Source: a virus (taxonomy: Duplodnaviria; Caudoviricetes). From it: a DNA stretch of 52,276 nucleotides. The stretch spans positions 1-52,276 of IMG/VR virus record IMGVR_UViG_3300017909_000880, one strand, 5' to 3'. A program made the position numbers and the translations under genes. The notes under the pieces are model-generated. The model ran no database searches. It was not told the origin of the DNA and saw only the letters and a program-made list of their open reading frames with translations. This document shows, one piece after another, positions 23,618-44,796 of this stretch (the stretch's first letter is position 1; each line of letters begins with the position of its first letter).

Positions 23618-24118
23618 ATGAACATTTTCGTAACAGAGTCGTGCCCTGTAAAAAGTGCACAAGGTCTATGTGATAAACACATACCGAAGATGGTACTTGA
23701 GTCTGCTCAAATGCTATCAACAGCGTGGAGAGTACATGGAGAAAAATATGCTGAGGATGAAGGGTTGTATAAACAAGCCTATCTAAATCATCCCTGTACT
23801 ATCTGGGCGAGAGCTGAGTTTGAAAACTATATGTGGTTGTTCAAACACTTCGCTGCCTTATGCGAAGAGTACACCCACCGTTTCGGTAAGATTCATGCCT
23901 CTGCTAGGTTGATACCCGCATTGAGCAATGCCCCTACCCTTCTTTGTTCTGAGTCAGATATACCTGACGCACCTAAAACATTCGCATTAGCAATGCCAGA
24001 TGAATATAAAGAAGAAAATGTGTATTCTTCTTACCGCAACTATCTCATTAACGAGAAAAGTCATTTTGCTAAATGGGAAAGAGACCCTTCACGAAAACCA
24101 ACATGGTGGATTAATTAA
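23618..24118 (+). CDS. Pyrimidine-dimer DNA glycosylase / endonuclease V (DenV)-like protein
   Basis: MNIF...CDKH..KM.LE..QML and NHPCTIW motifs. Confidence 0.7.
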   Translation: MNIFVTESCPVKSAQGLCDKHIPKMVLESAQMLSTAWRVHGEKYAEDEGLYKQAYLNHPCTIWARAEFENYMWLFKHFAALCEEYTHRFGKIHASARLIPALSNAPTLLCSESDIPDAPKTFALAMPDEYKEENVYSSYRNYLINEKSHFAKWERDPSRKPTWWIN

Positions 24119-24972
24119 TGGCTTCGATAAGAAAAAAGCTGGAAGAAAACGTCAACAACAGCAAGAACACCCGCATGGATATTGCCAGTGGAAATATGCT
24201 GGGTAACTGGCGGCCTGATGAAATAACGCATATGACGAGGTACGACAAGATTTCGTCGTTATGTATTGGAGAGGCTAACAACCTTGCCAGACCTTTGGAC
24301 GTACTCGAAGCCGGATGTGGAGAAATTTGGGTTCTGCGAAACTTGTACAAAGCCTACACGGTTAAGAAATCAGACATTATCCGTTCTTACCGAGGAGTAG
24401 ACATTGATCCCGTTTGTCTACAAGAAAAGCAAGGCTACAGCAGCCCGACAGGATTAGTCGAGGATTCAACTTGGTTTGCTAATTTCAACGGCAAGATAGA
24501 TATCCAAGATCTAACTACGAATCCTGTGTTTGACTTACCTGATAACTCAATAGATTTCTTTTGGACCACAGAAGTTATCGAACATATGAACCGAGAGTTC
24601 ATCGCTCCATGGTTAGATGACGCTAACAGAGTGTTACGACCAGGAGGATTGATTTACGTTTCTACTCCTAACCATGATGGATCTAACGACAAGTTACCCG
24701 AAGACCATATTTATGAGTGGGGCTTCGAAGAACTAAAAGAAGAACTCACTAGCCGCTGGGAACTACAATCGGTTGTTGGCACGTTTTGTCAAATGCCTAA
24801 GCTCAAGAAAGCTATGCAAAATGATGATCAAGATAAGGCTTGGCGATGGTGGCCAGATCAGTTCGAGCTTCTTCAAGAACGATACGGTAAACAATTCTTA
24901 CGAGTAGTTGCCGCGACATTCTACCCAGAAGTCTCTAACAACTGTGCGTGGATTCTGAGAAAGGCTAAATGA
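24118..24972 (+). CDS. Class I SAM-dependent methyltransferase, small-molecule type
   Basis: VLEAGCG (motif I), GVDID, EVIEH, VLRPGG...STPN; no DPPY/NPPY or PCQ DNA-MTase motif. Confidence 0.85.
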   Translation: MASIRKKLEENVNNSKNTRMDIASGNMLGNWRPDEITHMTRYDKISSLCIGEANNLARPLDVLEAGCGEIWVLRNLYKAYTVKKSDIIRSYRGVDIDPVCLQEKQGYSSPTGLVEDSTWFANFNGKIDIQDLTTNPVFDLPDNSIDFFWTTEVIEHMNREFIAPWLDDANRVLRPGGLIYVSTPNHDGSNDKLPEDHIYEWGFEELKEELTSRWELQSVVGTFCQMPKLKKAMQNDDQDKAWRWWPDQFELLQERYGKQFLRVVAATFYPEVSNNCAWILRKAK

Positions 24973-25874
24973 CAAACTTCATCCCCGCAGAAGTTGATCG
25001 TTATGTTTATTGGATAGAAGAACGTGAACGTATCCGTCATCTAAAAGAAGAGGTTCGACAAGAACCTCCTTGGACGATGGATCCGATACTTCGAGAGTTT
25101 AAATTCTGTCAAGTATTCCGAGAGGACGATAGAACTACTCGCTGGTTTCGACACCATATTCGAGAGCCGTTGAGAAACGATCCTGAAGTGTTTATGGCGA
25201 CAGTCGCGTTTCGATTTTTCAATCTGATTGAGACAGGTGAGACGTTGCTCGACCACAACTTACACATCGAGTGGGATCGAGAAAAAGCGATCCAAGAAAT
25301 TAGAAAGCAAAACAAGTGGGTTACTGGGGCGTATATCGTTAAGAGTCCGAATCGTATGGACAAAGTTACAGGAGTAGCTGAGTGCGTATCACATATTTGG
25401 GCAGAGCGTGATCGAATACTAAAAGATTTCTCTCACCTCAAATCTTTATGTGATGCGTGGAATTACTTACTGAGGTTTCCGTACATTGGACCATTCGTCT
25501 CTTATGAGATGGTTACTGACTTGCGACATACGCATCTGTTAGAAAACGCAGAGGATATTCTTTCATGGGCTAATGCTGGCCCAGGAGCGATGAGAGGATT
25601 AAACAGATTAACAGGTAGACCTTTGGAGTTTTGTAAACGTAGCTGGGATTGGAACAGCGAGATGCAAGCGTTGTATCAGTGGTGCATAGAACACCTCGAC
25701 CTGAGTAAATTCCACAGACCTTTTGAGATGCGGGAGATAGAGGGCGGTCTATGTGAGTTCGATAAGTATTCTCGAATACTGCACGGACAAGGTCGGACGC
25801 GAAGCGTGTACGACTATTCACAAAAAGATCGACCATTAATTGAAGAGTATGAGAGGAAGAATGGGAAAACTTAA
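24969..25874 (+). CDS. Amino acid:DNA transferase-fold protein (aGPT-Pplase1 / 5-hmdU hypermodification family)
   Basis: PWTMDPILREFKFCQVFREDDRTT, HhH-like IGPFVSYEMVTDL, GPGAMRGL, EIEGGLCEFDKY. Confidence 0.82.
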   Translation: MTNFIPAEVDRYVYWIEERERIRHLKEEVRQEPPWTMDPILREFKFCQVFREDDRTTRWFRHHIREPLRNDPEVFMATVAFRFFNLIETGETLLDHNLHIEWDREKAIQEIRKQNKWVTGAYIVKSPNRMDKVTGVAECVSHIWAERDRILKDFSHLKSLCDAWNYLLRFPYIGPFVSYEMVTDLRHTHLLENAEDILSWANAGPGAMRGLNRLTGRPLEFCKRSWDWNSEMQALYQWCIEHLDLSKFHRPFEMREIEGGLCEFDKYSRILHGQGRTRSVYDYSQKDRPLIEEYERKNGKT

Positions 25875-26100
25875 ACAAGCTATTATAGATCTTGAAAATG
25901 CAGATATAGATTTCGTAATGCACTGTTACGGATCATTCTTAGAATACTGTATAAAAAACAAACGTGCTGCGAATACTTGGTACGATGCGATAGACGCGAT
26001 TCATTGGTCAGCTTACTTAACAGGAAGATTGCATCTAAGCCGTTTACAGATCGAACACATTCTTACATTACGGACGGAGAGTCTTTATGAAAGTTATTGA
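25861..26100 (+). CDS. Hypothetical protein within the modification operon
   Basis: RBS GAGG before ATG25861; overlaps both neighbours. Confidence 0.55.
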   Translation: MGKLKQAIIDLENADIDFVMHCYGSFLEYCIKNKRAANTWYDAIDAIHWSAYLTGRLHLSRLQIEHILTLRTESLYESY

Positions 26101-27157
26101 TGTAAGAAATGTCAACCAAGCCTTTATGTGGGGAATAGATTTATTTAATTCAGAGGCTAATTACCGAGAACAAGAAAGTCGTAACGGGCCAACTAGAGAG
26201 ATCCTGACTCCGGTTACAACGGTGTACTCGCGTCCTTGGCAGAGAGTGCTGTTTCGTGAAGAACGAGACGCTAATCCTTTCTTTCATTTATATGAGTCAA
26301 TCTGGATGTTAGCGGGTTCTCGTAATCTACAGAAGCTGACGCACTTTAACGCAGGGATGGCTAACTTTTCTGATGACAACGAAACCTTGAACGGTTCGTA
26401 TGGGTATCGGTGGAGATATCAGTTTGCGCACGATCAGTTAGTTAGTGTGATCGACATGCTTAAAAGAGATCCTGATTCCCGTCGAGTAGTCTTACAGATG
26501 TGGGACGCTGTTCACGATCTTGACAGCCCAAGTAAAGACATCCCCTGCAACACTAATATCTACTTCAAGATCAGAGATAACAAATTACAGATGACAGTCT
26601 GTAATAGATCGAACGATATGATCTGGGGAGCTTACGGTGCGAACGCAGTACATATGTCTGTGTTACAAGAATATATTGCGGCGGCATTAGAGCTAGAGAT
26701 GGGGCCGTACTATCAGATAAGCGACAGTTTTCATATCTACCTGAATAAAGAGTGGGACAAAGTAAAACATATCGACGGGGCAGATTTCTATGATCGTCAA
26801 TACTGGGATGCAATGGGGTACCCTGACCCCCACTATCCTCTCGTTACTGAAGGACAGGCTGATAACTTTTTACGAGAGTGCGAACAGTTTTTAGCAACGA
26901 TCCCACCTCGACGTGTCGCTGGCAACCCAGAACCTGTAAACGATTGGCCTAATATGTTCGGATCGAGTGGGTACACAAACGAGTTCTTCCCTGAAGTCAT
27001 GATCCCGATGACTCATGCCTATTTAAAACATAAGGAACGGAAGTATGAAGATTGCTATAAATATCTCGGAGACATTAAAGCAGTTGATTGGCAGCAAGCC
27101 TGTTTTACTTGGATCAAACGACGAGAACGTAATTGGAGAAATAAAAATGGGTCTTGA
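26087..27157 (+). CDS. Thymidylate synthase-family enzyme, probable dUMP hydroxymethylase
   Basis: SRNG, YGYRW, SRRVV, DIPCN (catalytic Cys), RSNDMIWGAYGAN, SFHIY; divergent from ThyA PCH/RSCD..GLPFN; next to the hypermodification gene. Confidence 0.8.
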   Translation: MKVIDVRNVNQAFMWGIDLFNSEANYREQESRNGPTREILTPVTTVYSRPWQRVLFREERDANPFFHLYESIWMLAGSRNLQKLTHFNAGMANFSDDNETLNGSYGYRWRYQFAHDQLVSVIDMLKRDPDSRRVVLQMWDAVHDLDSPSKDIPCNTNIYFKIRDNKLQMTVCNRSNDMIWGAYGANAVHMSVLQEYIAAALELEMGPYYQISDSFHIYLNKEWDKVKHIDGADFYDRQYWDAMGYPDPHYPLVTEGQADNFLRECEQFLATIPPRRVAGNPEPVNDWPNMFGSSGYTNEFFPEVMIPMTHAYLKHKERKYEDCYKYLGDIKAVDWQQACFTWIKRRERNWRNKNGS

Positions 27158-27479
27158 TGCTAAGTGGACAGAGATGAAGGATATCGCCCAGCAGGACATT
27201 GTAAGCCTGATCGAATCAGAAAAGTCTTACGGTGATTCTTGGAAACGTAGAGGCGGTACAGGAGCCTTTATGATGCTCGCTCGTAAATTCGACCGTATCG
27301 AACAACAAGCCGAATCTTGTAATTACGATGTGTTCGAAGCAGGAGCTAAGTTCAACGGAGAAGACGGGCTACTCGACGATATCGGAGACCTTAGACGATA
27401 TTTGTTTTTAGTAGAACACCACATTCGATACGGTATACAGGATATTGACCCAGATGCAGATACCACTGATTCAGCCTGA
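27147..27479 (+). CDS. Nucleotide-modification-associated all-alpha NTP pyrophosphatase-like protein (DUF1599/Nmad1-like)
   Basis: KSYGDSW..RG..G....ARKFDRIE and DDIGDLRRY motifs; RBS GGAG before ATG27147. Confidence 0.6.
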   Translation: MGLDAKWTEMKDIAQQDIVSLIESEKSYGDSWKRRGGTGAFMMLARKFDRIEQQAESCNYDVFEAGAKFNGEDGLLDDIGDLRRYLFLVEHHIRYGIQDIDPDADTTDSA

Positions 27480-29316
27480 AAGCGATTGGGTCGCTCCTGA
27501 CATACTGCCACGTTTCGATCCTAACGAAACGTTAGCCGTTGATTTAGAAACTTACGATCCAAATCTGACGAACCGTGGGCCAGGATGGGCCACAGGTGAC
27601 GGGCACGTTGTAGGTGTAGCTATTGCATCGGACAGCTGGTCAGGATACTTGCCAATCCGACATGAAAACGGTGGTAATTTAGAGGAGGAAGTTGTCTTAC
27701 GTTGGCTCAAAAGAACGTTTGAGAATCATAAAGGTACGATGGTTTTTCATAATTCACTTTATGACGTAGGTTGGTTAAAACGCGAAGGAGTCAACTTGAC
27801 ATGCCCTCTCCGCGATACGATGTTCGCAGCTCCGCTGTTCGACGAAAACCGTTGGTCATACTCCCTAAACAATCTCGGTTTGGATTTTTTAGGGGAAACT
27901 AAAGATGAAACGTTACTTGAGATGGCCGCTAAAGCATGGGGCGTAAACGCAAAGAGCGGTATGTGGTCGCTCCCTGCTAAATACGTTGGGTCATACGCTG
28001 AACAAGATGCAGTGATGACTCTTAAACTGTGGAAGATATTTAAGAAGAGGATCGAGATTGAAGGATTACAAAAGATTTTCGACCTCGAATGTGACCTCAT
28101 ACCTTTGCTGATCGAGATGCGATGGCGAGGTGTTCGGATCGACACAGCTAGAGCAGAGCACGCCTCGGAGCAAATGTCTAAGAAAGAACAGCAGTTGCTC
28201 GTAGAAATGAAACGTAAGTTCGGAACGTCGATCGATATCTGGGCGAGCGCGTCGATACAAAAAGCATTCGACGCTAACGGAATCTGGTATCCGCATACAG
28301 CGAAAGGCGCACCTAGTTTCCAAGGGCCGTGGCTCGAAGCTCACGAACACGAACTACCGAAGATGATCGTCGAAGCTCGGAAGATTAATAAAGCTCGGAC
28401 GACATTTATCGAAGGAGCGATCTTAGAGTATTCACATAACGGTCGGATACACGCTGAAGTTCACCCGCTGAAGAACGACGATGGGGGAACAGTGACTGGG
28501 CGGTTTAGTTATTCCAACCCAAATTTACAACAGATCCCTGCTCGAGACCCACAGATCGGCAAGATGATCAGGTCGTTGTTTATTCCAGAAGAAGGGGCAA
28601 CGTGGGGGATTTTCGATTACTCTCAACAAGAACCTAGAATTACGGTTCACTACTCGTCGTTGCTCGGACTTCCAGGAGCAGCTGACGCAGTCAACGCATA
28701 CTCTAACGAAGGTGCTGACTTTCACCAGATCGTAGCAGATATGGCAGGGATACCTCGGAAACAAGCTAAAGACATCAACCTCGGCCTGACTTACGGGATG
28801 GGTAGAGAAAAGTTGATTAGAGAGTTAGGACTAGAGCAAGACGAAGCTGCTAGATTGTTAGAAGTCTACCACGCAAGAGTTCCTTTTGTTCGAGCGATGC
28901 AAGATAGATGTACTCGGACTGCTCAAGAACGAGGATATATAACAACTCTCGGAGGTCGGAAATGTCATTTTGATTTATGGGAGCCAGTCGGATATTTAGC
29001 TGACGAAAAGAAAACACCGTTACCTGAACAAGAAGCTCGAGACCAGTATGGAAATAATCTCAAACGATCGTTTACATATAAAGCTCTGAACAAGCTAATT
29101 CAAGGATCAGCCGCAGATATGACGAAGTTAGCGATGCGAGAGCTGTGGAAAGAAGGCATGGTGCCGCATATACAGATCCATGATGAACTCGACTTCTCGA
29201 TATTTAATAAAGAACAATCGGAGATGGTAATAGATAAAATGGTCAACTGTGTCGATATGAGAGTACCGTTGGTAGTAGATTACGAATCAGGAGATAACTG
29301 GGGAGAAGCAGTATGA
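27454..29316 (+). CDS. polA: Family A DNA polymerase with 3'-5' exonuclease
   Basis: VDLET, HNSLYD, YAEQDA (Exo I-III); TGRFSYSNPNLQQIP, DYSQQE (A), KDINLGLTYG (B), HDEL (C). Confidence 0.96.
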   Translation: MQIPLIQPESDWVAPDILPRFDPNETLAVDLETYDPNLTNRGPGWATGDGHVVGVAIASDSWSGYLPIRHENGGNLEEEVVLRWLKRTFENHKGTMVFHNSLYDVGWLKREGVNLTCPLRDTMFAAPLFDENRWSYSLNNLGLDFLGETKDETLLEMAAKAWGVNAKSGMWSLPAKYVGSYAEQDAVMTLKLWKIFKKRIEIEGLQKIFDLECDLIPLLIEMRWRGVRIDTARAEHASEQMSKKEQQLLVEMKRKFGTSIDIWASASIQKAFDANGIWYPHTAKGAPSFQGPWLEAHEHELPKMIVEARKINKARTTFIEGAILEYSHNGRIHAEVHPLKNDDGGTVTGRFSYSNPNLQQIPARDPQIGKMIRSLFIPEEGATWGIFDYSQQEPRITVHYSSLLGLPGAADAVNAYSNEGADFHQIVADMAGIPRKQAKDINLGLTYGMGREKLIRELGLEQDEAARLLEVYHARVPFVRAMQDRCTRTAQERGYITTLGGRKCHFDLWEPVGYLADEKKTPLPEQEARDQYGNNLKRSFTYKALNKLIQGSAADMTKLAMRELWKEGMVPHIQIHDELDFSIFNKEQSEMVIDKMVNCVDMRVPLVVDYESGDNWGEAV

Positions 29317-37559: not shown

Positions 37560-37856
37560 ATGGCTGAACGTAAGAAAAAAGACCCACGATTAGCGAGAGC
37601 TGGCGTTTCGGGCTATAACAAACCGAAACGTACCCCGAGTCATCCTAAAAAATCCCATATTGTTGTTGCGAAAGAAGGCGATAAGATTAAAACGATTCGT
37701 TTTGGTCAACAGGGTGTAAAAACTGCGGGTAAGCCTAAAAAGGGTGAGTCGGCAAAACAAAAGGCTCGTCGTAAGAGTTTCAAAGCTCGCCATAGTAAAA
37801 ACATTAAAAAAGGCAAAATGAGCGCAGCTTATTGGGCCGATAAGGTGAAATGGTAA
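37560..37856 (+). CDS. Small very basic protein
   Basis: IRFGQQG, RRKSFKARH, SAAYWA.K.KW motifs; about one third K/R. Confidence 0.75.
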   Translation: MAERKKKDPRLARAGVSGYNKPKRTPSHPKKSHIVVAKEGDKIKTIRFGQQGVKTAGKPKKGESAKQKARRKSFKARHSKNIKKGKMSAAYWADKVKW

Positions 37857-38656
37857 TGGAAGATATGCAGGCTGTTTATGACGATGAAATTGGCGGTAGT
37901 TCCGGCGGCTTAATGTCTTTATTACGTGGTACGGGAGATATGGTTCTTGGGGAAGATATTATGGATAATCTTCCGATGTTACTCCGTGCGTTAGAAGGTA
38001 CGAATAAAGATACGTTAACGATGCAAGAAACTCGTGATATGTCGGGGCCGATTGACGAATCAAGTTTATCTGTTCGATTAAGTAATACTCCAGGATTAAG
38101 TTCGATGTTAGGGCCAGAAGCTGGGGTATTAGCGGCTATGGCTGGTGGACCTATGGGTAAAGGTAAATCTGCAAAAGAATTACTAGAAGAAATTATGGAA
38201 ATAGGCCGTAGGATGAAATCCGAGCAAGATTTTATTGATACTCGTCGTGCTACGGAAGACGAAGCGGATCTCCCTGATTTTTTAAAGTCGTTTTCGCAAA
38301 AGCAAAAAGAGCGACGGGGTGAAGAGGGATTCCAGGAGATGTTGCAAGAGTATCGTGATGAATATATGGATTCGCCTGAAGCGTTAGAAAAAGCGATGCG
38401 TGTCCAGCGAGACATTTTAAGAAAGGCCCGACGTGACGGAGATATGTTTGCCGAGGGTGGTCGCCCAGGATTATATGCAAATATCGCCGCGAAACGTAGG
38501 CGGATAGCGGCGGGGTCAGGTGAGAAAATGCGTAAGCCAGGATCTAAGGGTGCCCCGACGAAAGAAAATTTCCGACAAGCTGAAACGACTGCTAAAAAAG
38601 CACGTGGTGGTGGATTAAGTTACGCTAAAGGTTATTACGGGAAATCGTATAAATGA
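37850..38656 (+). CDS. Modular late protein: acidic N-part plus basic C-terminal peptide
   Basis: FAEGG separates the acidic region from PGLYANIAAKRRRIAAGSGEKMRKPGSKGAPT. Confidence 0.7.
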   Translation: MVMEDMQAVYDDEIGGSSGGLMSLLRGTGDMVLGEDIMDNLPMLLRALEGTNKDTLTMQETRDMSGPIDESSLSVRLSNTPGLSSMLGPEAGVLAAMAGGPMGKGKSAKELLEEIMEIGRRMKSEQDFIDTRRATEDEADLPDFLKSFSQKQKERRGEEGFQEMLQEYRDEYMDSPEALEKAMRVQRDILRKARRDGDMFAEGGRPGLYANIAAKRRRIAAGSGEKMRKPGSKGAPTKENFRQAETTAKKARGGGLSYAKGYYGKSYK

Positions 38657-43146: not shown

Positions 43147-43824
43147 ATGCCACATCTGATCAGCAATATTCCACACTTTAATTGCTGGGTTAGAAAAGAA
43201 TACACACACAATCATTTAGATTACCACGGAGAGTATTTACACGCGATAGCGATTGCGGTAAACACTATTCCAGACAGATGTCTATCTTTCCAAGTTGTAT
43301 TCACTGGATACGAATTGGGAGAGGAAGAAGATTCTGAGAATCTTCACGGAGGAGCGATGTGGGCACGAATGCCAATCACTGCTCTAGTAGCGGATGCGAT
43401 GCTTGAGGAAATGCCAGAAGCGATGGCTACTCATTTAGCGCAACCTTGGGACTGTAGTTCACGAGACCATGAAGTTATTGTTATGGATCGTGTATCTTCT
43501 AGTCCTTGGTTATGTAAGATTGATAATGATTTTTATACTGGGAAGTATTTGTTTACAGTTGACTATACAGGAAACGATATCGCTGACGATCCTGCACAGC
43601 ATAAACAAAGTCATTTGATACAGCTTACAGATGCTGGGAAATGGACAGGCAACATTGTAGCATTGCCTAATAATCGTGTAAGAGCGACTAACCCAGCATT
43701 ATGGGAGACAGGTTCTGGAGCACCAGACTTTTATCCTAGTCAACACGTACATAGTGCAGAGATTGACGATAGCTACATGGATCCGAACATTACGTTTAAT
43801 AACTTGTATTCTGAAGGAGATTAA
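43147..43824 (+). CDS. Conserved hypothetical head-module protein
   Basis: 225 aa globular protein after portal; GAMWARMPI, QPWDC, HKQSH, LPNNR. Confidence 0.7.
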   Translation: MPHLISNIPHFNCWVRKEYTHNHLDYHGEYLHAIAIAVNTIPDRCLSFQVVFTGYELGEEEDSENLHGGAMWARMPITALVADAMLEEMPEAMATHLAQPWDCSSRDHEVIVMDRVSSSPWLCKIDNDFYTGKYLFTVDYTGNDIADDPAQHKQSHLIQLTDAGKWTGNIVALPNNRVRATNPALWETGSGAPDFYPSQHVHSAEIDDSYMDPNITFNNLYSEGD

Positions 43825-44163: not shown

Positions 44164-44363
44164 TGGACTTTATTAAGTATTCGGAGTTTTTACTCCGCAA
44201 ATTTCGTGAGAGACAAGAAGATCTCACGCAATCACTCGCCGCTGGTGGCGCACAAGACTATGTTCAGTACCAACGAATAGTTGGTGAAATTTCAGGGCTT
44301 AATTTTGCTGAACAAGAGATAACCGCCCTGCATGGAAGGATGGAAGATGTCGAAGACGACTGA
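44163..44363 (+). CDS. Small helical head-module protein
   Basis: DYVQYQRIVGEISGL motif; coupled. Confidence 0.7.
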   Translation: MDFIKYSEFLLRKFRERQEDLTQSLAAGGAQDYVQYQRIVGEISGLNFAEQEITALHGRMEDVEDD

Positions 44364-44796
44364 ACTTGAAAAAGGGGTAACTCCCGATCGTGTACTAAAT
44401 TTTGGATCTGATACGCCGTTAGATCCTCCGAAAGAGTCTATCACTCCTGAAAATTTAGAATCTCACGCAGATAAACTACCAAACCCTACGGGGTATCGTA
44501 TGTTGATCCTACCGTTTTCTCCTCCTGAGAAAAGCAAAGGCGGCATTCTTATGGCTAAACAAACTCTTGATAAAGAGAAAATAGCTACTATCGTGGGGCT
44601 TGTCGTAAAACAAGGCCCAGACGCATATTCCGACCCTGATAAATTTCCTCAAGGCCCATGGTGTAACGAGGGTGATTGGGTAATTTTTGGTCGCTATGCA
44701 GGAGCTAGGTTCAATATCGAAGGAGGAGATATGCGTCTCCTAAACGATGATGAAATTTTAGCTACTGTAAATAACCCAGAAGATATTCTGCAATAA
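44347..44796 (+). CDS. groES: GroES/Cpn10-like co-chaperonin
   Basis: PTGYRMLI, KSKGGIL mobile loop, GDWVIFGRYAG, LLNDDEILA. Confidence 0.85.
   Translation: MSKTTELEKGVTPDRVLNFGSDTPLDPPKESITPENLESHADKLPNPTGYRMLILPFSPPEKSKGGILMAKQTLDKEKIATIVGLVVKQGPDAYSDPDKFPQGPWCNEGDWVIFGRYAGARFNIEGGDMRLLNDDEILATVNNPEDILQ

Follow-up and report, generated by a model that had tools for sequence, protein, structure and literature searches.

All thymidine hypermodifications that have been reconstituted, those of phages M6, PaMx11, ViI, PhiW-14 and SH-Ab 15599, begin with a kinase, followed by a clade-2 transferase. The 5-hydroxymethyldeoxyuridine (5-hmdU) DNA kinase adds one phosphate, giving 5-phosphomethyldeoxyuridine (5-PmdU), according to the available text of Lee et al. 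2021 (PMC8989533); an earlier note on the DNA analysed here had spoken of pyrophosphorylation, which that account corrects. The DNA analysed is the entire stored record of virus IMGVR_UViG_3300017909_000880 (52,276 bp, linear, 86% complete by CheckV), hereafter the window. It harbors, on the plus strand, a cassette of five genes encoding a class I S-adenosylmethionine (SAM)-dependent methyltransferase (24118..24972, 284 aa), a clade-1 protein of the aGPT-Pplase family (24969..25874, 301 aa), a 79-aa protein (25861..26100), a thymidylate synthase (TS) homologue (26087..27157, 356 aa) and a 110-aa protein (27147..27479), but neither the kinase nor a clade-2 transferase. The first three open reading frames (ORFs) lie where the earlier note had placed them. 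The gene content suggests that the window carries a complete and functional variant of the phage thymidine-hypermodification system. This variant probably makes a DNA base not described so far and, by analogy with related cassettes, probably does so by methylating 5-hmdU.

A clade-1 protein outside the transferase family

The product of 24969..25874 matched PF18723 (HMUDK_hel, '5-hmdU DNA kinase, helical domain', formerly aGPT-Pplase clade 1) with an E value of 6.8e-45 and 154 bits against a cut-off of 25. The match spans positions 4-278 of the 281 in the profile, and a six-frame search gave an E value of 1.1e-46. The ORF matched no other Pfam family even at E<=10, including PF18724 (ADDT), the family of the characterised amino acid:DNA transferases, and PF18724 had no match in any of the six frames of the window. 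The same profile readily recovered its controls, M6 gp51 (159.7 bits) and PaMx11 gp46 (97 bits, E 1.6e-27). By tblastn, the window protein matched PaMx11 gp50 (40.5%), whose gene has that of the kinase gp49 on one side and that of the TS homologue gp51 on the other, and not the structurally solved glycinyltransferase gp46. On these sequence comparisons the protein is assigned to clade 1, outside the amino acid:DNA transferase family. Since it belongs to PF18723 and not to PF18724, the window lacks a known transferase as well as a kinase, and the locus is a different cassette rather than the known pathway stripped of its first step.

The clade-1 protein is distantly paralogous to the amino acid:DNA transferases, and its predicted fold is of the base-flipping helix-hairpin-helix (HhH) type. 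An alignment of 19 clade-1 sequences (identity down to 35%) has 39 invariant columns, which include a GPG hairpin at residues 204-206 and the block E253-M-R-E-x-E258-x-x-L-C262-E-x-D-K-Y. Within the block, E258-G-G-L-C262 is invariant in 19 of 19 sequences, and L261 and E263 are likewise invariant. Clade-2 proteins have Q-E-V/A-E-T-I/V-L-C-K-W at the same relative position; the 5-PmdU glycinyltransferase of PaMx11 (gp46, or PUGT; PDB 8Z2M, 8Z2N) has E243-T-I-L-C247. Glu258 and Cys262 are equated with PUGT Glu243 and Cys247 by motif similarity, not by superposition. In the available text of the structural study, PUGT Glu243 and Thr244 bind a metal and Cys247 attacks C6 (PMC11472151), and the Cys/Glu pair is described as essential in M6 gp51 and ViI gp247 (PMC11472151, PMC8989533). 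Both Cys262 and Glu258 are retained in the window protein, and the loss of catalytic residues that the earlier note had considered is not seen.

The AlphaFold 2 (AF2) model of the clade-1 protein has a predicted local distance difference test (pLDDT) score of 88.9 and a predicted template modelling score of 0.86, and resembles HhH glycosylases. The best VIA-align scores, all tied, were those of QNG1 (Z 11.4), archaeal Ogg (11.0) and PUGT (8z2n, 10.8 over 225 residues, root-mean-square deviation 4.1). Z values of 8-11 to Ogg, EndoIII, MagIII, AlkA and MutY over 170-200 residues place the protein in the HhH-GPD glycosylase fold, although the VIA tool itself notes that a Z under about 13 counts as no more than moderate evidence when the fold is helical. 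The window protein and PUGT thus have in common an HhH-glycosylase-like helical fold and an E-x-x-L-C motif, but belong to different Pfam families, and the tie with Ogg and QNG1 means that PUGT is not singled out. Comparison of the clade-1 alignment (A1) with three clade-2 sequences (A3) by hhalign gave a local match of 47 columns in the GP[FW] region (E 0.042). A phmmer search of PDB sequences with clade 1 found nothing relevant and no PUGT match, and Foldseek found no PDB match to the model at E<=0.001. Separately, the ADDT profile weakly matches the C-terminal half of the clade-1 protein gp19 of Alphaproteobacteria phage phiJL001 (L003 7926-8792; E 7.8e-4, 14 bits), a direct sequence trace of kinship between both clades. 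A transferase-like activity of the window protein is possible from its motif and model, but unproven.

The available text of Lee et al. 2021 gives activity to clade 2 only (PMC8989533), and the clade-1 paralogue appears as 'aG/PT-PPlase1' in Table 3 of Lee et al. 2018 (PMC5889632). For M6 gp51 and gp55, that table and Table 1 of PMC8989533 give opposite clade labels; by Pfam, gp51 is ADDT and gp55 is HMUDK_hel. In public data there are 838 relatives of clade 1 and 281 of the methyltransferase with similar length, and many of them come from Tara and other marine sets. Three longer forms of 528-573 aa have HMUDK_hel in two stretches, with the better match in the C-terminal half. They have no added Pfam domain and their first ~280 residues are without assignment. 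The search for longer forms is not informative on methyltransferase fusions.

Absence of the kinase and conservation of the cassette

Neither PF18748 (5-hmdU DNA kinase), searched against all six frames, nor a kinase profile (A4) built from PaMx11 gp49, M6 gp54 and an M6-like environmental ORF (L027) had a match in the window at E<=10. The Walker-A expression [AG]x4GK[STG] gave four matches in the six frames, one in a UvrD-like helicase (22096), two inside a low-complexity ORF of 268 aa beside the terminase (37850-38656) that is not kinase-like, and one in an antisense frame of 65 codons. No kinase of any fold was listed in Pfam scans of 74 ORFs (72 of 80 greedily called ORFs and two alternatives, at E<=0.01 for 17 ORFs and E<=0.001 for 57), nor by PHROGs scans. 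A related genome, G001 (55,048 bp, 91% complete), bridges both ends of the window. The missing stretch of ~3.9 kb encodes in G001 a 254-aa repeat protein, a 1057-aa tail fibre, three small ORFs and a full-length 236-aa 2-oxoglutarate (2OG)-Fe(II) oxygenase, and contains no Walker A motif and no kinase-profile match. The gap of G001 itself falls within the window, and every gene of this phage type seems to be represented in one or the other of the two genomes. The P-loop 5-hmdU DNA kinase is truly missing, and kinase and clade-2 transferase are both absent from the window, G001 and four further relatives. A kinase as companion or fusion partner, as the name HMUDK_hel implies, is a matter of gene context and no part of the PF18723 profile, so the assignment of the window protein to that family holds. 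The earlier note was therefore right that no recognisable kinase is present and that the part outside the window carries tail genes, to which the three small ORFs and the rest of the oxygenase are added; it was mistaken in calling the PF18723 gene at 24969..25874 the transferase.

Experimentally proven 5-hmdU DNA kinases carry a misleading label in RefSeq. Those of PaMx11 (gp49, L002 4381-4950), M6 (gp54, L038 11686-12249) and Ab18-like phages are annotated as 'terminase small subunit'.

The order methyltransferase, clade 1, 79-aa ORF and TS homologue is kept in all 20 close loci, in which clade-1 identity ranges from 73 to 98%. The next two genes, encoding a 110-aa protein and the polymerase PolA, follow in 18 of the 20; the remaining two contigs end earlier. 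Pairwise ratios of nonsynonymous to synonymous substitution rates (dN/dS) against relatives, with saturated comparisons left out, were 0.022 for clade 1, 0.034-0.046 for the methyltransferase and 0.057-0.089 for the TS homologue. The ratio was 0.011-0.13 for the 110-aa ORF and 0.17-0.60 for the 79-aa ORF. Given this synteny and strong purifying selection, the cassette is not degenerate, and the 'degenerate pathway' that the earlier note had entertained finds no place.

Partners of clade 1 and a possible route without phosphorylation

Clade 1 has different neighbors in other lineages. In M6 the order is kinase gp54, clade-1 gp55, Nmad5-like gp56 and then TS homologue gp58, and in PaMx11 it is kinase gp49, clade-1 gp50 and TS gp51. 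Like the clusters of Pseudomonas phages M6 and PaMx11 (PMC8989533, PMC11472151), the window has a TS homologue (39% to PaMx11 gp51) and clade 1 just upstream of a family A polymerase; the likeness to clade 1 of M6-type phages is ~35% by tblastn, M6 gp55 itself not having been scored. Unlike them, the window has no P-loop kinase, clade-2 transferase or HD 5'-deoxynucleotidase, no tailoring enzyme of the pyridoxal phosphate, radical-SAM, flavin adenine dinucleotide or acetyltransferase type, and a SAM methyltransferase beside clade 1 instead. Bacillus phage SP10 gp186 matches PF18723 (E 1.5e-46) and retains the Cys-Glu pair. In that fusion protein of 637 aa a Walker-A kinase (GCNGAGKS, residue 40) precedes the domain, whereas clade 1 of the window is stand-alone, its gene overlapping that of the methyltransferase. 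Nothing in SP10 matches PF18724 at E<=1, which leaves clade 1 as the sole aGPT-Pplase family member found there. This phage makes glutamyl-thymidine, as listed in Table 3 of Lee et al. 2018 (available text).

Nine distinct distant loci have no kinase in the flanks of clade 1. A TAGT glycosyltransferase and a TS homologue lie near clade 1 in five of the nine, phiJL001 (L003), L025, L029, L030 and L032; the glycosyltransferase directly adjoins clade 1 in L030 and L032, and is one to three genes off in the other three. L026 has a glycosyltransferase match below threshold, and no recognisable partner was found beside clade 1 in L024, L034 and L035. The complete genome of phiJL001 and three genomes scored 100% complete (G006-G008, two with terminal repeats) encode clade 1 and TS and have no match to PF18748 or A4, searches in which the M6-like control G009 did match. 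The cassettes of phiJL001 (gp19-gp24), L025, L029, L030 and L032 are therefore like that of the window in having clade 1 and TS without a kinase and a presumed hydroxyl-acting enzyme beside or near them, but that enzyme is a glycosyltransferase and not a methyltransferase. These cassettes are known from genes alone and are parallels, not precedents. Clade 1 is the constant partner across all three kinds of cassette, those with a kinase, a glycosyltransferase or a methyltransferase. The methyltransferase is specific to this phage lineage and fills the slot that the kinase or glycosyltransferase occupies beside clade 1 elsewhere. Because the three kinds of partner are all possible hydroxyl-acting enzymes, the methyltransferase is read as acting on the hydroxymethyl group of 5-hmdU.

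The stop codon of the methyltransferase gene overlaps the start of the clade-1 gene by 4 nt. The protein has the conserved SAM motifs LE-x-GCGE and G-x-DIDP (alignment A2) and matches Pfam Methyltransf_23/11/25 above their cut-offs, which identifies it as class I. Its AF2 model has a pLDDT of 80.2. Residues 1-55 (24118-24282) include many invariant residues (SKNTRM, NWRPDE), yet have a pLDDT below 50, and folding of this extension may require a partner or DNA. A Foldseek search counted 500 matches, all at E<=0.001, of which the best 50 are class I methyltransferase-fold proteins bar two or three. The VIA neighbors were CmoM (Z 17.3 and 16.6, 207 aligned residues), METTL6 (16.9), the cap N7 enzyme RNMT (16.4) and Hen1 (15.5-15.7), the last ranking 37th and 44th among tied class I folds; the nearest solved folds are those of small-molecule and RNA methyltransferases. 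E. coli CmoM (PDB 4HTF, 8JOZ) is the top-ranked match, but its identity is 15% and many class I methyltransferases unrelated to it score within 1-2 Z units, so that no family membership can be claimed. CmoM forms a methyl ester at cmo5U34 of tRNA and acts on a side chain at C5 of uridine. No DNA methyltransferase family was matched in Pfam and none was among the 50 best VIA rows, with no explicit search made for (D/N/S)PP(Y/F) or PC/ENV motifs.

Methyltransferase relatives of similar length number 281 in public data, and an exhaustive profile search recovered 1185 representatives at E<=0.001, of which 31 reached E<=1e-30. Ten distant members bear generic names or none. Context searches gave no viral-contig match for two of them (P0260, P0252), no metagenome-contig match for a third (P0259), and only generic methyltransferases, 20-43% identical, for a fourth (P0265). 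Complex prediction for clade 1 and the methyltransferase (A1, A2) scored 0.00, which gives no verdict in either direction.

The TS homologue matches PF00303 (E 6.6e-24) and phrog_5131 (E 9.2e-108), the latter grouping it with the M6/PaMx11-type enzymes, and shares 39-41% identity with its counterparts in PaMx11 and phiJL001. Its best solved match is the CMP hydroxymethylase MilA (2.6e-20), versus 6.5e-16 for canonical TS. The nucleophilic Cys is retained in a 'PCN' motif aligned to the TS Cys, which agrees with the superfamily assignment. The printed alignment also appears to show a retained Asn of the uracil type, which we take to be the counterpart of TS Asn177 in E. coli numbering. The C-terminus of TS is replaced, the last 130 residues of the homologue not aligning to TS. 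The enzyme is likely, from these sequence features, to be a dUMP hydroxymethylase that makes 5-hmdUMP.

The explanation preferred here, although with confidence somewhat short of even, is a kinase-independent derivatisation of 5-hmdU in DNA in which the methyltransferase is the variable, hydroxyl-acting enzyme and clade 1 the constant, Cys-dependent partner. The TS homologue would make 5-hydroxymethyl-dUMP, and the phage polymerase would bring 5-hmdU into DNA. The methyltransferase would then derivatise the 5-CH2OH group on DNA with SAM, most simply to 5-methoxymethyl-dU. The clade-1 enzyme, the other of the two that would act on the DNA, would flip the base, and Cys262 and Glu258 would carry out C6-thiolate chemistry on a non-phosphorylated, 5-substituted uracil. 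Methylation as an activating step, one of the options in the earlier note, seems unattractive, because turning the hydroxyl into a methyl ether would not improve it as a leaving group. Clade 1 may work on 5-hydroxymethyluracil (hmU) directly. C5-methyltransferases have been reported to exchange or remove the hydroxymethyl group of 5-hydroxymethylcytosine without activation. No natural 5-methoxymethyl-dU was found in the literature searched.

Several observations weigh against this explanation. Action of the methyltransferase on DNA is proposed by analogy only, and the class I enzymes that it resembles in structure are generic ones, with scores less than or about 2 Z units apart. No published biochemical function for any clade-1 protein was found in the literature searched, and QNG1, the top structural neighbor of clade 1, acts on free nucleosides and nucleotides. 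PF18748 is insensitive, giving 18 bits for the true kinase PaMx11 gp49 against a cut-off of 27, and 15.5 bits for the control G009. The Pfam scans of window ORFs recognised no dCMP deaminase, dUTPase or HD-type 5'-deoxynucleotidase. Other hmU phages remove dTTP with these three enzymes; an HD homologue is present in M6, PaMx11, phiJL001 and several distant loci, and a dUTPase in L029. Without dTTP-removing enzymes in the window, hmU may not replace T completely, and the TS homologue could turn out to be a normal synthase. Lastly, M6 gp55, a clade-1 protein, was dispensable for glycinyl-thymidine formation in lysates, as described in the available text of PMC8989533.

A rival proposal is that clade 1 is itself a group transferase on unphosphorylated 5-hmdU, in which Cys attack at C6 and acid-catalysed loss of water would allow a cellular nucleophile to be attached, and the methyltransferase would then methylate the attached group in the manner of CmoM. 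Formation of glutamyl-thymidine by SP10, which has only a kinase-fused clade-1 domain, would fit such a role, as would the catalytic-type motif and fold common to clade 1 and PUGT and the top, though tied, rank of CmoM among the methyltransferase neighbors. However, clade 1 is always accompanied by a kinase in SP10, M6 and PaMx11, suggesting a phosphorylated substrate there, and it was unneeded for amino-acid transfer in the M6 lysates. Where the partner is a glycosyltransferase, the hydroxyl of hmU itself is the simplest acceptor, leaving no transferase role, and no nucleophile can be named. A clade-1 group transferase is thus unlikely, if still worth considering. It is less likely again that 5-hmdU is phosphorylated by an unrecognised kinase, whether a non-P-loop ORF, a host kinase or the methyltransferase-fold protein using a nucleotide. 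Such an enzyme could hide among the roughly 35 of 74 scanned ORFs that have no Pfam or PHROG family or be overlooked by the insensitive PF18748 profile, but Walker A motifs in the window and G001 are confined to the helicase, the low-complexity protein (two) and the antisense frame (one). Pfam listed no kinase family of any fold, four other complete or 100%-scored genomes with clade 1 and TS are likewise kinase-less, and the methyltransferase retains canonical SAM motifs.

An equally improbable alternative is that no base is modified after replication, the TS homologue being an ordinary enzyme of the nucleotide pool and clade 1 and the methyltransferase acting on free nucleotides, for example by clearing dTMP, or on RNA. 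The tied top match of clade 1 to QNG1, a nucleoside/nucleotide glycosylase, and the lack of dTTP-depleting enzymes in the window can be read this way, as can the tRNA substrates of CmoM and METTL6 and the pairing of clade 1 with a TS homologue in every lineage examined. On the other hand, clade 1 has the weakly aligned GP[FW] region and E-x-x-L-C in common with DNA-bound PUGT and is fused to a proven DNA kinase in SP10, and the phage encodes no tRNA. Finally, the cassette might be what is left of a decaying M6-type system after loss of the kinase and the transferase. Nothing but the lack of these two genes speaks for decay, which is scarcely credible given enzyme dN/dS values of 0.02-0.09, a gene order shared by 20 of 20 loci at protein identities of 73-98%, and the 838 clade-1 and 281 methyltransferase relatives of similar length.

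The phage, its neighboring genes and the wider meaning

By its terminase the phage is an HTVC023P-type podovirus; the identity of its large terminase subunit is 60% to phage 023Pt_psg01, 56% to Pelagibacter phage HTVC027P and 51% to HTVC023P. A megablast search of phage records with the cassette gave no match. The cassette lies in a run of ORFs on one strand (23618-29316) whose starts and stops overlap. The first gene of the run encodes a Pyr_excise-like protein of the T4 endonuclease V type (23618..24118, 166 aa; PF03013 E 1.4e-11, phrog_624 E 3.9e-61). It is an optional neighbor of the cassette, being directly upstream of the methyltransferase gene in 10 of 20 close loci, elsewhere in three, absent from that slot in six and at a contig edge in one. 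A Pyr_excise gene stands beside or near clade 1 in three separate lineages (window 23618-24118, L029 3329-3796, L034 13041-13559). The last gene of what is a replication and modification operon encodes the family A DNA polymerase (27445..29316; PF00476 E 9.1e-61).

Two small ORFs belong to the cassette. The 79-aa ORF is lineage-specific and translationally coupled on both sides. Its start at 25861 is favored over the upstream TTG at 25840 because the MGKLK start is conserved across relatives. Its profile matched the window and 22 of 22 close related loci (24 rows including L001, the duplicate of the window) and nowhere else among the loci compared, and it has no Pfam, PHROG or NCBIfam family. 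The conserved 110-aa ORF (27147..27479) has its longest frame beginning at 27045, inside the TS gene. It and two of its three relatives had no Pfam match at E<=10; the third (L029) had a chance-level match to a syntaxin domain (E 0.095). The nearest ESM Atlas cluster carries DUF1599 on 11% of its members, so that a DUF1599-like protein is possible as a lead only. A homologue directly follows clade 1 in the distant loci L028 and L029 (L029 4535-4975, 48% identity). The 110-aa ORF stands where M6-type phages have the HD nucleotidase.

Other genes of the window were noted in passing. The ORF at 8-427 is the C-terminal part of the 2OG-Fe(II) oxygenase (PF13759) cut by the end of the record; its full 236-aa counterpart in G001 lies at L036 13806-14516 on the minus strand. 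Between 18822 and 22066, three genes match families named after gp32, gp33 and gp34 of cyanophage Pam3, and are followed by an AEP-type primase that matches the primase domain of TOTE conflict systems. A protein of a PHROG annotated as ferredoxin (43147-43824) and a GroES-like co-chaperonin (44332-44796) are encoded between the portal and capsid genes.

The pair of TS and PPlase1 has been reported as a DNA-hypermodification module of HTVC023P-type phages (mSystems 2022, PMC9599517). In the available text of that account the word 'methyltransferase' does not occur and 'kinase' is used only for a histidine kinase, so neither the methyltransferase nor the missing kinase is mentioned there. The cassette described here is conserved and widespread and belongs to a common type of uncultured marine phage. 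It offers a concrete system for addressing the role of clade 1, the processing of 5-hmdU without phosphorylation, and the base carried by these abundant ocean phages. A bolder and more tentative proposal is that HTVC023P-type marine podoviruses, which rank with the most abundant phages of surface seawater, replace thymine with a base new to nature. That base could be 5-methoxymethyl-uracil or a methylated adduct, and two enzymes would make it without ATP, the clade-1 Cys enzyme activating unphosphorylated 5-hmdU directly. Such direct activation, if true, would give the clade-1 family its first function; all known thymidine-hypermodifying phages conserve this family. The identity of the carried base bears on host restriction and on the biases of sequencing-based virome surveys.

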